Of a stretch of 64,000 nucleotides of DNA, positions 38,751 to 44,028 are shown piece after piece. Source of the DNA: Candidatus Saccharimonadales bacterium (GTDB lineage Bacteria; Patescibacteriota; UBA1384; 2-12-FULL-50-11). Under the pieces are notes generated by a model. That model did no database searches. It was not told the origin of the DNA and saw nothing but the letters and a program-made list of their open reading frames with translations. Location of the stretch: NCBI GenBank assembly GCA_035480235.1, contig DATIHX010000008.1:96104-160103 (forward strand). The letters run 5' to 3'. The first letter of the stretch is position 1; each line of letters starts with the position of its first letter. A program made the translations under genes and the position numbers.

Positions 38751-38780
38751 GCTGCAGAACTATTTTTTATTTACTGTCTT

Positions 38781-38971
38781 ATGTGGCTAGCGCCACTGAC
38801 TATTATTTGAGGGTGAGGGGGCTAATTTGCTAAGCCGCCCCCTACACCCTCAAACTCCCTACCCCCGCAAGCTTCCTTTGCGGGGCAGTGGTGCAAGCTG
38901 ATGGCTGTCAACCGGCAACTGGCACTGTTTCCTCCATCAGCTTGAAGAACTATTTTATCGGCGGCAAAAAA
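38781..38971 (+). ncRNA. structured intergenic repeat family, copy C
   Basis: See findings. Confidence 0.6.
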
Positions 38972-38984
38972 TTGGGGAAAAGCA

Positions 38985-39013
38985 TTGACAATTAGTTCGA
39001 AATATGCTATAGT
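38985..39013 (+). promoter_or_regulatory. consensus extended -10 promoter
   Basis: TTGACA, 17 nt, (TGC)TATAGT. Confidence 0.72.
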
Positions 39014-39037
39014 TTCTCGGTGTGACGCAACACAAAT

Positions 39038-39295
39038 ATGATTATGCGCACACCACTAAACGGCCTTCGGCCGCCAACAGCATTGCCGCAAGGCATTACT
39101 ATCGTCAACGTTCAGGTACTTTGGGCGACGGGAATACCTGTCTTTGTAAGCCTACCAGCTGGTGTTGAACTAGCTAGTCAGGACTTCATTGGTGGTGTTA
39201 TCCGTTTACCTAAAGGCTCTTACTACTGGAGCTGGCAACTTACCATCTGGGTAGAGTGTCTAACCGAAGTAGTCAGGAGCGGCACTTGGATATGA
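39038..39295 (+). CDS. hypothetical small protein
   Basis: 85-aa ORF lying between a consensus promoter and a terminator. Confidence 0.6.
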   Translation: MIMRTPLNGLRPPTALPQGITIVNVQVLWATGIPVFVSLPAGVELASQDFIGGVIRLPKGSYYWSWQLTIWVECLTEVVRSGTWI

Positions 39296-39299
39296 ATTC

Positions 39300-39328
39300 T
39301 TTGCTCGCCTTCCCAGGCGAGCTTTTTC
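39300..39328. terminator. bidirectional terminator
   Basis: GCTCGCC-TTCCCAG-GCGAGC followed by T5. Confidence 0.75.
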
Positions 39329-39634: not shown

Positions 39635-40270
39635 ATGTCTCTTCAAGCGCTCGGCCCGAGTTTATTGCAGGCCGTTATCCTTATTGTCATCTTACTTTTC
39701 AGCTTATCGGTTCACGAAGCGGCCCACGGCGCGGTGGCTTATTTATTTGGCGACGACACCGCCAAACGGTTTGGCCGGTTAACGCTTAACCCGCTGGCTC
39801 ACTGGGACCGCGTTGGGACGACGTTACTCGCGGGGCTGATTTTACTCAACGCTTTCGGCATCGCCGTGCCGGTGATCGGCTGGGGCAAACCAGTGCCGGT
39901 GGACGAAAGCAAAATGGACAATCCCCGCTTCCAGGGCCTGCAAGTGGCGTTAGCCGGCCCGATGAGCAACTTTATTTTAGCGGCGATCATCGCCTTAATC
40001 GCCCGTTTCATCCCGATGCCAGCTTGGCTCAGCAGCGCGTTGGCTTTAGCGGTTTTTATTAATTTATTCCTAATGTTTTTCAACCTGCTGCCGATCCCGC
40101 CGCTCGACGGCTCGCGGATTTTGCGGCTTTTTATCAGCGACGAGGCCTACTACCGCCTCGCCTCCAACCCTATTCTTTTCTTCGTTATTTTCTTTGTAGT
40201 GATTTACTACTTGGCCGCGCCGCTCCAAACCCTCACTAGCCATTTGGCCGGCTTTCTACTGGGCGGGTAA
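39635..40270 (+). CDS. site-2 protease family (M50) membrane metalloprotease
   Basis: HEAAHG motif and multi-TM. The start is taken at the ATG 7 nt after TATACT. Confidence 0.8.
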   Translation: MSLQALGPSLLQAVILIVILLFSLSVHEAAHGAVAYLFGDDTAKRFGRLTLNPLAHWDRVGTTLLAGLILLNAFGIAVPVIGWGKPVPVDESKMDNPRFQGLQVALAGPMSNFILAAIIALIARFIPMPAWLSSALALAVFINLFLMFFNLLPIPPLDGSRILRLFISDEAYYRLASNPILFFVIFFVVIYYLAAPLQTLTSHLAGFLLGG

Positions 40271-40287
40271 TAATAATTGTGGTTTGA

Positions 40288-40419
40288 CCAGAAAACAATT
40301 TTTGCTGACTTACGCAGCCGATTTGCTTGGTTCCGAGGTTACTGCCGAGGAAAATCGGCGAGGAATTAAGTGAGGAGCCGCTGGAAGCGACGAGCGGTCG
40401 AGGAAATTCGGTTTTCTGG
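40288..40419 (+). ncRNA. 132-nt closed multi-helix domain in an ORF-free region (unclassified; strand uncertain)
   Basis: CCAGAAAAC/GTTTTCTGG closing helix, GCCGATTT/AAATCGGC and CCGCT/AGCGG. Confidence 0.35.
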
Positions 40420-40701
40420 CCTAGGCACCGCCTTTTTCGCTTCCCTCCATTGAGCTGACAACCAAAATCCCCTATTCTAAACTCTGCTTCGCTGCTGATT
40501 TTACGAAGTGGCTCGTAATAATTTCACCGGGAATCTGCCCGTTGGGCGGCGCTCTGTTTTACTCGGCGTCGATCGGCCATAGCCTTGGCTAAGACCAGAG
40601 GATTCCGTTCTTCCCAGTATTGCTTGGTTGGGATTCGTCTCGATTTGGCATTTTGGGGCCAAGAAAATCGGTGCCACTTCGTTACTCGGTAGCGGAGCTT
40701 G

Positions 40702-40947
40702 CGGAGTGTGGCGCAGTTGGGCCGAAGCGGTAATGAGAAGCAAACTGCTTTGCTTCGAATCGCTGAGGCGGGTTTTGGCCTGTCGCATACTTGCGACGAC
40801 AAAACCCCGGAAGCGCGCAAAGCATTTTGGTCAGGCCATAGCGCAGTTGGTAGCGCGTCGGGCTGGGGGTCCGAAGGTCGTGAGTTCAAATCTCACTGGC
40901 CTGACCAAGATGCTTTGAGGTCGCTGGTTCAAATCCAGTCACTCCGA
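40702..40947 (+). other. tRNA-shaped scaffold whose helices bracket tRNA-Pro (nested or disrupted tRNA)
   Basis: Acceptor 40702-40708/40940-40946, D-stem 40711-40714/40813-40816, 8-bp helix 40818-40825/40910-40917 and T-arm 40923-40939. Confidence 0.45.
40832..40907 (+). tRNA. tRNA-Pro (GGG)
   Basis: C1-G72 acceptor CAGGCCA/TGGCCTG, anticodon loop CTGGGGG, T-arm GTGAG-TTCAAAT-CTCAC, CCA encoded. Confidence 0.92.
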
Positions 40948-40997
40948 CAGAAGAGTTGCCCTTCAAGAGCAAAACGGTGTATACGTAAAGGAAGGTA

Positions 40998-42932
40998 ATG
41001 ACCCAAACCGAGAATACCTTTTCAGTTGTTAAGCTACACTCTACTGAGCGACCAGCTGATCGTTTTATCGGCGCCGAAACCGAGCAACTTATCGCCAGCG
41101 GCCAAGAAGTCCTTTTGGTTAGCTTGGTGGAAATAAACAATCGCTGGCAGACCGCCATCGATTTGGGGAAAACCATCCATTCGGCCTTTGTAAAAAGTTA
41201 CAAAGAAAGCACCCAGCGGTCGCTCTTAACCAAATTCGAAAGCGCCCTGAAAACGCTCAATCAGCTGCTCGACGACGCCGAAGCCAAAGCGACAGAGCCG
41301 GTCCATTGCGCGCTCGGGGTTTTTTCGGGCGGGCAGCTCTATTTTTCCACTATTAATTACGGCCACATTCTGCTCTGGCGGCGGCAGAAACTCAGCCAAA
41401 TTAGTGGAGCTCATTTGGCGGGCGAACGGTTCGCTTCGGTGACCAGCGGCGATATTAAAAAAGACGATTGGCTGATTTTTGGTAGCCAAACGCTGAGAGA
41501 ACTAGTAAAGAAAAATGACGGCGAAGGCTGGGAGACGGGCGATAAAAAAACACTGCTCAAGGACATAGCCGAAAGCGCTGAGGCGACCGACTACCCGTTG
41601 CTGGCCGCTATTGCCGTGGCGCCAAGCCAACTAAGCCAGTTCGAAACGATCAAGCTCGACGTTAGCGGCGCCAAACCAATCGTTACTATTTCTGGTATTT
41701 TGGCCAGCTTAGCGACGGCCGGGCAAGCCATCAAAACTATTTTTAGCCGCTCTGTCACTGCAGCAAAAACCCGAAAAAAACCCGCCAAGCCCGCCGAAGT
41801 GAAGGGGTCAGAGCCAACAGACGAAGGCGATCAGCTACAAGGTGAGTTAGCAGCTCCAACGCCGAAACGCCGCCGTTTTCCGGTTATTCCAGTGCTGGCT
41901 GGCGTGGTAGTACTTGCCCTGCTGATCGCGGGCGGCATTATTATCCGCAACGAATTTCGCCGCGTCGGCAAAGTACCGACCGTAGCCGCTTCAAATATCA
42001 GCGATTTAGCCGCGAAAACCGCAACCAAAGATATGTTCGCTTTTATCGAACAAAATCTGACCGTCGACAATTACAAAAACTTAACCGCTAAACAGCGAGC
42101 TGCTTTCGGCCAAACGCTGGCCGCTCAAAATATCGGTATCGTTGACCAAACCGCCAAGGCCGCGACGTTGGATAACCCGATCGTGGCGATGGACAACACC
42201 GCCGGCAGTTTGTATTTGATCGACAATACCGGCCAGCTCTGGCGTCAGCAGACCAGCACTCCAACCAAAGTGACGCAAGCGAGTTTAATCGCCAACCCGG
42301 TTAGCTTGGCGGCGCTGGCCGACAATAAAATACTAGTCGCTGATCAAGCTGGGGCGATCTGGTTATTTGACGGCTCGGCTAGCCAGCCGGTTAATCTAAC
42401 CTTACCGACGACGCTGACTCAGGGGCCGAAACTCTTGCAAAAATTCGGCAGCAGCAATTTATATATTTACCAAACTTCCACCGGCGCTATTTATAAAGTG
42501 GGCGGCTTTGTTCACGATATCGTGCCGACCGGCAGCACCACTACGCCCGGGCCGGACGGGACCACCCCCCCGCCGCCGCCCTGGGTAGCTAGCAGCGTTT
42601 TGAATTTCGGCACTTTTGATGACTGGGCCGTGCCGGGCGATTTCATCGGCGGGGTCGATAGTGGCGTCATTAAGAACTTCACCAAAAATAAATTGGAGAA
42701 TTTGAGCGTCCAATATTACACCGACAATACGCCGCTCCGCTTGAGTTTAACCGCCACTGCCAACCAACTGGCTGTCGCTCGTGGCAAATTCGTGACAATT
42801 TATTCAACCACCGATGGCGGTAAGCAGAGCGAAAAAGCTCTGGTTTCCGACGCCACAATTACCGATCTCTCTCCCGGCCCCGGCGGCAGTTTGTTCGTCG
42901 CGGCTGGCAAAACCCTCTTCAAAATTCCGTAA
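40998..42932 (+). CDS. large hypothetical membrane protein (cytoplasmic N-domain, one TM helix, extracytoplasmic C-domain)
   Basis: 644-aa ORF with TM helix FPVIPVLAGVVVLALLIAGGIII and a proline run before the C-terminal region. Confidence 0.75.
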   Translation: MTQTENTFSVVKLHSTERPADRFIGAETEQLIASGQEVLLVSLVEINNRWQTAIDLGKTIHSAFVKSYKESTQRSLLTKFESALKTLNQLLDDAEAKATEPVHCALGVFSGGQLYFSTINYGHILLWRRQKLSQISGAHLAGERFASVTSGDIKKDDWLIFGSQTLRELVKKNDGEGWETGDKKTLLKDIAESAEATDYPLLAAIAVAPSQLSQFETIKLDVSGAKPIVTISGILASLATAGQAIKTIFSRSVTAAKTRKKPAKPAEVKGSEPTDEGDQLQGELAAPTPKRRRFPVIPVLAGVVVLALLIAGGIIIRNEFRRVGKVPTVAASNISDLAAKTATKDMFAFIEQNLTVDNYKNLTAKQRAAFGQTLAAQNIGIVDQTAKAATLDNPIVAMDNTAGSLYLIDNTGQLWRQQTSTPTKVTQASLIANPVSLAALADNKILVADQAGAIWLFDGSASQPVNLTLPTTLTQGPKLLQKFGSSNLYIYQTSTGAIYKVGGFVHDIVPTGSTTTPGPDGTTPPPPPWVASSVLNFGTFDDWAVPGDFIGGVDSGVIKNFTKNKLENLSVQYYTDNTPLRLSLTATANQLAVARGKFVTIYSTTDGGKQSEKALVSDATITDLSPGPGGSLFVAAGKTLFKIP

Positions 42933-43058: not shown

Positions 43059-43979
43059 TTACGGGTGAGTTCGTTTGCTGTCGTGAGCAGCTAACAGCCC
43101 CGTTCTAGTGAGCCAAATAATTTGAATCCTGCTCAAACCCGTCTCATTTACCACGTCTCTCATCCGCAGCCACTGCTCTTCTTCGAGAAGTTGATGGCTA
43201 GCCAAAGCTTTCTCGAGTTCGGCCTGCCAGCTGTCAGGATGATGAACGGTCTTTCCGGGGTTGAGGTAGTAACCCCTGGCCCCTTTTTCAAGACTGCGAA
43301 GCCTTTGATGACAGGCAGGCGAACAAGTTCTCCGCCGGCGCATCCCCTTGACAATAAGGTTATTGCATTCGGGATTCTCGCACTTGCTTTTATCAAGCAA
43401 CGCTGAGAGCTCCGCGAAGCCTTCTCGTGTCAGAACGATTCGATTGCGGTCAACCCGCCGCCAACCGGCAATTCTCCCTGTTAAGCACCAATTTTCAATC
43501 GTTTTCTCATCCTTAACACCCGTTTTAGTGCACGCCTTCTTAAGGCTGACGCAAGACTTCTTCAAGGCCTGGGGGCCGAAGAGTTTCTTAATCAACCGCA
43601 ATCTCCGGTGAACAGGGGGGTAATGCGGCCAGGTTGACAAGGCAAGTGTCTTAGCGATGTATCCGATGGAGTAACCTTGCCTATAAAGTGCCCAAACAAC
43701 GAACAAAGACTTCAGCTCGTAATATCCTCTTGGTCGCGGCCGAACTCCTTCTGTTGTATGCCGAACTGGTTGATCAAGCTTATTGAAAACAAAACGGAGC
43801 TGACCGCTGGATAGATCCAATTGATCCAGGATTTCTTGGAACGCATAGCCCTGGTCGATCAACGTCTGAACCTCCCTCATCCGGCGCTGAATACGAAGTT
43901 GGGTACTGCCTTTTACCTGACCGGGTCGTTTGGCTTTAACCACCCCAAGAGGTGGCGTGCGATCTAATTGTTGAGACAT
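43059..43979 (-). CDS. multi-HTH protein with a zinc ribbon and a HYPP module
   Basis: The start ATG is preceded by GGAGG. Excisionase/MerR-like HTH segments (ETGLSRIQIIWLTRTGLL; TIENWCLTGRIAGWRR), CENPEC...CSPAC and WPHYPP. Confidence 0.7.
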   Translation of the reverse strand: MSQQLDRTPPLGVVKAKRPGQVKGSTQLRIQRRMREVQTLIDQGYAFQEILDQLDLSSGQLRFVFNKLDQPVRHTTEGVRPRPRGYYELKSLFVVWALYRQGYSIGYIAKTLALSTWPHYPPVHRRLRLIKKLFGPQALKKSCVSLKKACTKTGVKDEKTIENWCLTGRIAGWRRVDRNRIVLTREGFAELSALLDKSKCENPECNNLIVKGMRRRRTCSPACHQRLRSLEKGARGYYLNPGKTVHHPDSWQAELEKALASHQLLEEEQWLRMRDVVNETGLSRIQIIWLTRTGLLAAHDSKRTHP

Positions 43980-44028
43980 CCGATACCTCCGAAGGTGGAA
44001 ATGTGCGCCCGAAAATCCGAGCAATTGA

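Follow-up and report, generated by a model that had tools for sequence, protein, structure and literature searches.

RNase P cleaves at position +1 of tRNAs, and the 3' ends of the mammalian MALAT1/mascRNA and MEN-beta transcripts are reportedly made by RNase P at a tRNA-like structure. In bacteria, tRNA-operon-derived small RNAs such as E. coli 3'ETS-leuZ arise from the processing of tRNA precursors. We describe here a conserved structured RNA, called RNA X, which is encoded at positions 40486-40698 of the plus (+) strand of a 64-kb stretch of DNA, between the gene of an M50 protease and a tRNA-Pro(GGG) locus. The whole of this stretch is referred to as the window; its source is a bacterium of the Candidate Phyla Radiation (CPR, Patescibacteria), a large uncultured share of bacterial diversity with tiny genomes, and the clade that carries RNA X is a small, Berkelbacteria-like CPR subclade of ultra-small cells.

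RNA X resembles MALAT1/mascRNA and MEN-beta in that a structured non-coding RNA stands directly upstream of a tRNA-shaped element, where cleavage at +1 would set its 3' end. The element next to it in the window has ceased to be a working tRNA but keeps an acceptor/T-arm minihelix, much as in mascRNA. It differs from the mammalian RNAs in being bacterial, in having a genuine tRNA-Pro as neighbour in most of its members, and in lacking both a triple-helix 3' end and any sequence relationship with them; the cleavage here is also one that we infer. With RNAs of the 3'ETS-leuZ type it would share its origin as a functional by-product of tRNA precursor processing, but those, at ~50 nt, are short sponges that act by base pairing and have little structure, whereas RNA X is a multi-junction RNA of 215 nt and 78 base pairs that carries a promoter-like element of its own. 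Finally, raiA, ROOL and GOLLD are large orphan RNAs that likewise have complex, strongly covarying folds, came out of comparative genomics and are often tRNA-adjacent; RNA X matches none of them in sequence or structure, is smaller, and occupies one syntenic site in one CPR subclade.

A conserved, covarying RNA upstream of tRNA-Pro(GGG)

The window was compared with relatives from a genome collection (loci L001-L003, whose proteases are 57-63 % identical to that of the window) and with closer ones obtained by protein search and contig look-ups (protease identity 86 % for L067, 85 % for L068 and 84 % for L071), L069 and L072 being further away at 79 % and 67 %. Within the intergenic region only positions 40462-40720 are conserved, with 72-77 % identity over ~200-260 nt in blastn comparisons with L067, L068, L069 and L071, and in every relative the conserved block is directly continued by a tRNA-Pro(GGG) that is intact from its 5' end on. 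A covariance model, R1, was built from five seed sequences, the window among them. It matches the window, L067, L068, L069 and L071 at 190-230 bits and finds a single, full-length copy in the window, at 40481-40701, which scores 222.8 bits on the + strand against 13.7 on the minus (-) strand. Five loci outside the seed are matched at the same position with 24-48 bits (L072, 48; L075, 47; L073, 40; L157, 28; L074, 24) and E-values of 1e-7 to 1e-15. RNA X is found at ten loci in all, each time between the M50 gene and tRNA-Pro(GGG). Its parts in the window are the following.

40486-40698, + strand: conserved structured RNA (RNA X), from the 5' strand to the 3' strand of P1, ~215 nt
40486-40497/40687-40698, + strand: P1, closing stem, followed by an internal loop
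40503-40516/40669-40682, + strand: P2, with a 10-bp core ACGAAGUGGC/GCCACUUCGU invariant in close relatives
40517-40529, + strand: J2/3, single-stranded, A/U-rich
40530-40536/40600-40606, + strand: P3, closing a four-way junction
40537-40547, + strand: P3a, hairpin of 4 bp
40548-40570, + strand: P3b, hairpin
40573-40598, + strand: P3c, hairpin of 11 bp with a CUUG loop
40608-40633/40638-40665, + strand: P4, long hairpin

The structure was derived with RNAalifold from a MAFFT alignment of five sequences (A2) that had not been fitted to any structure. The consensus comprises 78 base pairs, 24 of which covary with changes on both sides. The paired fraction of alignment cells is 92-93 %, compared to 39-51 % when the partners are slid by ±1-3 columns, and the 24 covarying pairs compare with 3-10 for slid partners; neither value was reached in any of 500 shuffles. 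When three distant members were added, 47 of the 78 pairs covaried in the resulting eight-sequence alignment, including 4 pairs of P2, which is invariant in the close set, although fitting to the model biases this alignment towards the structure and inflates its pairing counts. The window copy (40485-40702) folds with z = -4.6, a value attained by 0 of 200 shuffles, and the 12-14 G·U pairs per sequence (13 in the window copy) fix the strand as +. The covariation support is on a par with that of accepted orphan RNA classes, and we regard the existence of a conserved structured RNA at 40486-40698 as very nearly certain.

In the structure that covariation shows, P1 and the invariant P2 form a ~24-bp closing stem in which both ends of the RNA are sequestered. 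P2, which has a conserved non-canonical extension where U·U and G·G alternate with C-G pairs, leads to a three-way junction whose joining strands are A-rich and which bears a cloverleaf-shaped four-way domain (P3 and P3a-c) and the long hairpin P4, which a short A-rich strand joins back to P2. Apical loops are UNCG/CUUG-type caps. P1-P2, J2/3, the four-way P3 domain, P4 and the position between the M50 gene and tRNA-Pro(GGG) together define the family, to which the window belongs by its full-length match and the five non-seed loci by their matches at the same position. An earlier note on this DNA, the sequence-only reading, had proposed a structured non-coding RNA in the same stretch, which is free of open reading frames (ORFs). 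This general idea was right, but the RNA lies at 40486-40698 and has another architecture: the alignment with relatives that the note had called for revealed covariation outside the 132-nt domain that it drew at 40288-40419. Its description of the region as highly paired likewise holds for 40485-40702, a part it left undescribed, and not for that domain.

RNA X was absent from L001-L005 in a covariance-model search run with filters off, and from 80 distant metagenomic loci that had been found by protease alignment (relatives at ≤49 % protease identity). A DNA-pattern scan of JGI metagenomes with the RNA core pattern gave 0 hits, and viral contigs contained neither this core nor the non-conserved segment that precedes RNA X in the window. 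Divergence of RNA X tracks that of the host protease: nucleotide identity is 72-77 % where the proteases are 79-86 % identical, and the RNA becomes barely alignable where they are 63-69 % identical. It is single-copy at each locus and always at the same syntenic site. RNA X is, as far as this pattern tells, vertically inherited in the Berkelbacteria-like subclade, and a 215-nt non-coding gene is likely to be important because it has been kept at one locus across a subclade with tiny genomes.

In the more distant relatives L004 (1975-2120) and L005 (4625-4775), a conserved segment of ~150 nt is also seen upstream of tRNA-Pro. It is closed by ACAUUUUGG/CCAAUUUGU, resembling P2 of RNA X, with a different interior. 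The two-sequence consensus has 9 covarying pairs and R1 gives 2.9 bits, below detection; the segment may be a distant or reduced relative of RNA X.

Comparison with known RNA families

None of the 4,227 families of Rfam 15 matches RNA X at E<=10, either in window positions 40100-41100 or in five homolog-bearing loci, which answers the Rfam check proposed in the sequence-only reading. Scans at gathering thresholds and at E<=10 of the window, of the local region and of the loci of ten relatives returned only tRNAs and noise, and a search of the literature on structured RNAs of the CPR found nothing relevant. By these comparisons RNA X is a new RNA family, where new means unmatched by any catalogued family and implies no demonstrated new mechanism. 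It is a candidate for a new class of RNA, and the lineage that it comes from has very few known non-coding RNAs.

RNA X might nevertheless be a divergent housekeeping RNA that the Rfam models miss, most plausibly a 6S-like RNA polymerase-binding RNA. It is of similar size to 6S RNA (RF00013), ~215 nt, and shares with it a long closing stem that locks the ends and a conserved single strand beside this stem, here J2/3, which would be the bubble strand ahead of a distal stem and is 13-16 nt long, A/U-rich and flanked by G-C pairs. Moreover, none of rnpB, ssrS, ffs and ssrA, two of which (rnpB and ssrA) the earlier note had suggested looking for, is present in the window, which is only a fraction of the genome. 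However, six homologs showed no match to 6S, bacterial type A/B or archaeal RNase P, signal recognition particle (SRP), transfer-messenger (tmRNA) or YrlA RNA at E<=10, and the fold is branched instead of rod-like as in 6S RNA, with three covariation-supported branch points that include a four-way junction and a 25-bp side hairpin. RNA X is also missing from the sister lineages L001-L003, which is unexpected for an essential RNA. We therefore consider a housekeeping RNA improbable, a 6S-like role being the hardest to exclude because 6S RNA is defined by shape.

The other candidates were rejected individually. In RNase P RNA, the P4 pseudoknot is formed by the conserved regions CR-I (GAGGAAAGUCC) and CR-V (ACAGAA..GGCUUA). 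In RNA X the sequence GAGGAUUCC belongs to helix P3, of which it forms the 3' strand and which has 3-4 covarying pairs, and is not a P4-pseudoknot strand; no covariation links it to the segment before the 3' strand of P2 (UCGG, GAGG or AGGG). SRP RNA was discarded on the lack of an Rfam match and of a domain-IV GNAR-loop motif, and tmRNA on the lack of a match with Rfam or ARAGORN and of a tRNA-like end with CCA. YrlA RNA (RF02553) is comparable in its modular layout, in which a conserved stem at the base, where a protein plausibly binds, is combined with a distal four-way junction; the distal junction of RNA X measures ~78 nt and, with a closing stem of 7 bp and a first arm of 4 bp, is tRNA-like in its proportions. 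Its loops, however, are too small for a D-loop/T-loop elbow and P3a-c contain no T-loop sequence. The YrlA model gave no match on RNA X, its sole sub-threshold match being an unrelated tRNA in L073, and the neighbouring genes that were examined include no rsr. A riboswitch or T-box leader was dismissed as well: what follows at 0-6 nt is a tRNA and no ORF, and neither T-box nor riboswitch models match.

Putative promoter, 3' end and proposed maturation

Two short elements flank RNA X in the window.

40450-40478, + strand: putative promoter, with -35 hexamer TTGAGC (40450-40455), 17-nt spacer and -10 hexamer TATTCT (40473-40478)
40699-40701, + strand: 3-nt linker TTG between P1 and +1 of the tRNA-like structure, with the predicted RNase P site at 40701/40702

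Transcription would start from this sigma-70-like promoter at ~40485-40487, the first base of P1. The close relatives share the pattern TTGAGY-17 nt-TATYCT upstream of RNA X, L067, L069 and L071 reading TTGAGT-17-TATCCT/TATCGT, and in an alignment of the region (A1) the spacer varies, but T..A (of TTGA) and TAT..T in the hexamers do not. At the other end, the model match stops 0-6 nt before +1 of the tRNA in 8 of the 9 measurable loci, with a 1-nt overlap in L074. Since RNase P cuts at +1, it would make the 3' end of RNA X: co-transcribed with tRNA-Pro(GGG), the RNA would be released with an end a few nucleotides past P1. The fixed position against the tRNA thus provides a concrete model of maturation. 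No terminator was found next to RNA X except in L073, where a terminator-like hairpin with T-run (GCCGCC...GGCGG followed by TTATTTATT) lies between RNA X and the tRNA and would define the 3' end in place of RNase P.

The same proximity could be read differently. RNA X abuts the tRNA, is found nowhere else and occurs once per locus, as would a cis-acting 5' leader of tRNA-Pro(GGG) that controls its transcription, processing or folding and has no role after cleavage. The L073 hairpin, which intervenes between the two, argues on the contrary for RNA X as an independent product and against a mere leader. The close outgroups L001-L003 carry tRNA-Pro(GGG) at the same site without RNA X, which indicates that the tRNA can do without it. 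The tRNA next to RNA X in the window is disrupted and non-functional, the working tRNA-Pro being 130 nt further on inside a helix, and yet RNA X keeps all its helices. No expression platform with alternative pairing is visible, and P1 ends 3 nt before the tRNA. We thus find a purely cis-acting leader rather doubtful.

We favour instead the reading that RNA X is a stand-alone RNA whose 3' end is matured by RNase P, and we give it a probability of roughly 0.55. The released RNA would act on its own, most likely bound to a protein, and the invariant P2 with its conserved non-canonical extension is the likely recognition site. Several points weigh against this proposal. The putative promoter fits only 8 of the 12 consensus positions, so that a promoter scan of the window did not list it, and it cannot be made out in L073-L075, the distant members, where RNA X could be the 3' untranslated region of the protease mRNA; for both reasons the promoter assignment is tentative. 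We infer the promoter, the transcription start, the RNase P cleavage and the stability of the RNA from sequence. Linkage to the tRNA is inseparable from general synteny, as the M50 gene is also always adjacent. The comparison involves only ten sequences, five of them closely related, with an eight-sequence alignment that is biased as stated above.

A tRNA nested within the ancestral tRNA-Pro

In the window, the element that follows RNA X is a tRNA within a tRNA, organised as follows.

40702-40949, + strand: ancestral tRNA-Pro around a complete tRNA-Pro(GGG)
40702-40708/40940-40946, + strand: acceptor stem of the ancestral tRNA-Pro, retained
40711-40714/40813-40816, + strand: D stem of the ancestral tRNA-Pro, retained
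40723-40809, + strand: D-loop insert of ~90 nt with two hairpins
40818-40831/40904-40917, + strand: 14-bp helix replacing the anticodon arm
40832-40907, + strand: inner complete tRNA-Pro(GGG), called by ARAGORN and Rfam, capping the 14-bp helix
40923-40939, + strand: T arm of the ancestral tRNA-Pro, retained

The 20 nt at the 5' side (40702-40721) and the 33 nt at the 3' side (40916-40949) can be aligned with the tRNA-Pro genes of L067 and L069, which are intact, and the inner tRNA-Pro(GGG) is a different one. The minimum free energy (MFE) fold gives exactly the nested cloverleaf, with z = -7.4. The acceptor/T-arm minihelix, which is what RNase P recognises, is retained in full. The whole element is the context of RNA X and probably its 3'-processing signal. 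RNA X might even represent a new class of bacterial "tRNA-tethered" non-coding RNAs, whose maturation depends on RNase P at the adjoining tRNA. Though we hold this to be a speculative extension and unlikely as it stands, it would explain, by the need for a processing signal, why in this genome nothing but an acceptor/T-arm scaffold is left of the ancestral tRNA-Pro, and this scaffold around an inserted replacement tRNA-Pro would be a bacterial counterpart of the MALAT1/mascRNA arrangement.

The same nested layout was observed at L001:4655-4882, next to a protease only 60 % identical to that of the window, with the outer anticodon arm still present. The inner cassette of the window is 86.7 % identical to L001:4742-4846 (blastn), and the helix that flanks it keeps its pairing with other bases in L001 (TGACAT/ATGTCA versus AAGCAT/ATGCTT). 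Because the closer relatives L067-L071 have a plain tRNA-Pro with no nesting, this distribution suggests a mobile tRNA-bearing cassette or repeated loss. Our search of the literature on nested tRNAs and on tRNA insertions in Berkelbacteria found no precedent.

Other relatives show further rearrangements at this gene. In L073 (3509-3628), tRNA-Pro is followed by an insert of ~100 nt, at whose borders 17 nt of the tRNA 3' end (AGTCCCGCCACCCCGAC) are directly repeated; it contains a hairpin (GCAAGCAAACTGCTTTGCTTGC) homologous to the window hairpin at 40735-40757, and is an att-like integration scar. The single 18-mer hit of the hairpin element on viral contigs (L156) proved to be a chance match in coding DNA. 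Partial 5' duplicates of tRNA-Pro (e.g. TCGGGGCACAGTCGCG, TCGGGGTATAGTCGCGG) stand upstream of the real tRNA in L002 (4650-4735) and L005 (4785-4800). The nested cassette of the window and L001 and the repeat-bounded insert of L073 mark the tRNA-Pro locus as an insertion hotspot, and nested tRNA and att-like scars, as signs of recombination, bear on gene flow in the CPR.

With insertions at this locus in the window, L001, L073, L002 and L005, RNA X could itself be a component or a remnant of a mobile element targeting tRNA-Pro, such as an att-site-linked or guide-type RNA. This is hard to reconcile with its divergence in step with the host protease, its single copy at a constant syntenic site with no adjacent recombinase, its absence from viral contigs, and the fact that L001 has the nested-tRNA cassette but no RNA X; we judge a mobile origin very unlikely. 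Just past a 644-aa gene, the - strand of the window (43059-44024) encodes a 321-aa protein with a resolvase-type HTH_7 match just below threshold (E = 8.6e-5, 23.0 bits for a cut-off of 23.8), and its counterpart in L069 has a weak TnsD annotation. This protein may be relevant to the insertion hotspot.

The segment upstream of RNA X is specific to the window

The 132-nt domain of the sequence-only reading falls upstream of RNA X and of its promoter-like element.

40271-40446, strand none: lineage-specific spacer or insertion, from the M50 stop codon to the conserved promoter-like element, 176 nt

This reading had taken positions 40288-40419 as a domain closed by a 9-bp helix and had likened its purine motifs to Shine-Dalgarno or protein-binding GGA sites; taken as an RNA, the domain would display GAGGAA/GGA sites of Shine-Dalgarno or CsrA type. 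The segment does contain the 9-bp helix, two small hairpins and five GAGG motifs (at 40335, 40347, 40360, 40372 and 40400). The helices were drawn correctly, CCAGAAAAC/GTTTTCTGG lying inside inverted repeat I2 and GCCGATTT/AAATCGGC being I8, but do not exceed chance: perfect inverted repeats of at least 9 bp with arms within 200 nt occur in 24 of 60 random 430-nt windows of the same sequence. The fold of 40280-40430 is weak, and with z = -2.1 for the + strand and z = -2.6 for the - strand it does not single out either of them; for the whole 430 nt, z is -1.9 (+) and -0.4 (-). The GAGG motifs, 5 in 191 nt compared to 3.2 per kb in the window, show a non-random, ~8-fold local enrichment. Tandem Repeats Finder detects no tandem repeat behind their spacing of 12, 13, 12 and 28 nt. 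Their placement in single-stranded parts was only partly borne out, two of the five being largely paired in the MFE fold.

What bears most on the domain is its distribution. No blastn or tblastx match to 40271-40461 was found elsewhere in the window or in any fetched relative locus, so that neither the domain nor its purine motifs have a counterpart in the nine relatives examined, and the RNase P CR-I look-alike GAGGAAATTCGG falls in the same non-conserved part. In seven relatives the conserved block begins 26-57 nt after the protease stop codon, compared to 210 nt in the window. As nothing in 40271-40461 matches the relatives and the spacer lengths differ, the domain lies within a strain-specific insertion; by this comparison, 40271-40446 is a non-conserved, meaningless insertion outside the conserved RNA. 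Such an RNA domain at this place, despite the helices, the motif enrichment and the z-score of -2.1 in its favour, is largely refuted by its non-conservation together with the lack of a second copy, the equally good fold of the minus strand and the position ahead of the promoter-like element, and we consider it extremely unlikely. A sponge of the CsrB/RsmZ type was likewise not recovered, the GGA motifs having no homologs in the relatives and two of the five being paired in the MFE fold.

Other origins of the segment were considered. Three short collinear repeats (D1, D3 and D5) suggested a decayed copy of the conserved RNA at 40271-40461, but 53 of 500 shuffles attained the same score in local alignment and the covariance model gave no match. 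Blastn and tblastx against the window and all loci gave nothing that would point to a coding remnant or to a miniature inverted-repeat transposable element (MITE). An imperfect 18-nt inverted repeat (78 %) is present at 40279-40296/40411-40428; of the traits of a MITE, no second copy was seen in the 64-kb window or the loci, and no obvious target duplication. In L067 the spacer at the same place is 497 nt long and of unrelated sequence: an insertion of ~480 nt (L067:3637-4114), where the window has 176 nt, with a 111-aa hydrophobic ORF on the - strand followed by a terminator-like hairpin. Because of this unrelated insertion at the same site, the junction between protease and RNA appears to be a variable spot.

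Gene neighbourhood and other observations

The coding sequence upstream of the locus (39635-40270) is an M50 site-2 protease (Pfam E = 7.6e-19), whose nearest named relatives in a protein search are from Berkelbacteria; an identical protein is on record for an NCBI metagenome-assembled genome that bears the label Candidatus Saccharimonadales. Gene order is kept in the relatives: tRNA-Trp/Thr/Tyr/Thr (-), DNA polymerase III delta' (-), a treble-clef zinc-finger protein (+), L28 (-), the M50 protease (+) and tRNA-Pro(GGG) (+), usually followed by a ~610-650-aa protein (+) with no Pfam match. As the sequence-only reading had noted, no credible ORF lies between the M50 stop codon (40270) and the tRNA, the + strand ORFs being at most 43 aa long. 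ORFs of 95 and 121 aa on the - strand overlap the tRNA and the conserved RNA; they have no Pfam match, and the longest open frame switches strand and frame between homologs, with no frame preserved. In L068 (2844-3023, - strand), the public record places a 59-aa ORF over the conserved RNA, likely a spurious gene call. Gene callers thus put spurious ORFs on this locus, which is of relevance for annotation.

The window has another ORF-poor gap at 38985-39322 (+), a unit of ~300 nt bracketed by a promoter and a terminator hairpin. It is not conserved in the relatives, only 38751-38935 matching L069. An 85-aa ORF within it (39038-39295) has no Pfam match. Its promoter is near-consensus (TTGACA-17-TATAGT with TG, 11 of 12 positions), and the terminator hairpin at 39303-39322 is followed by a T-run.

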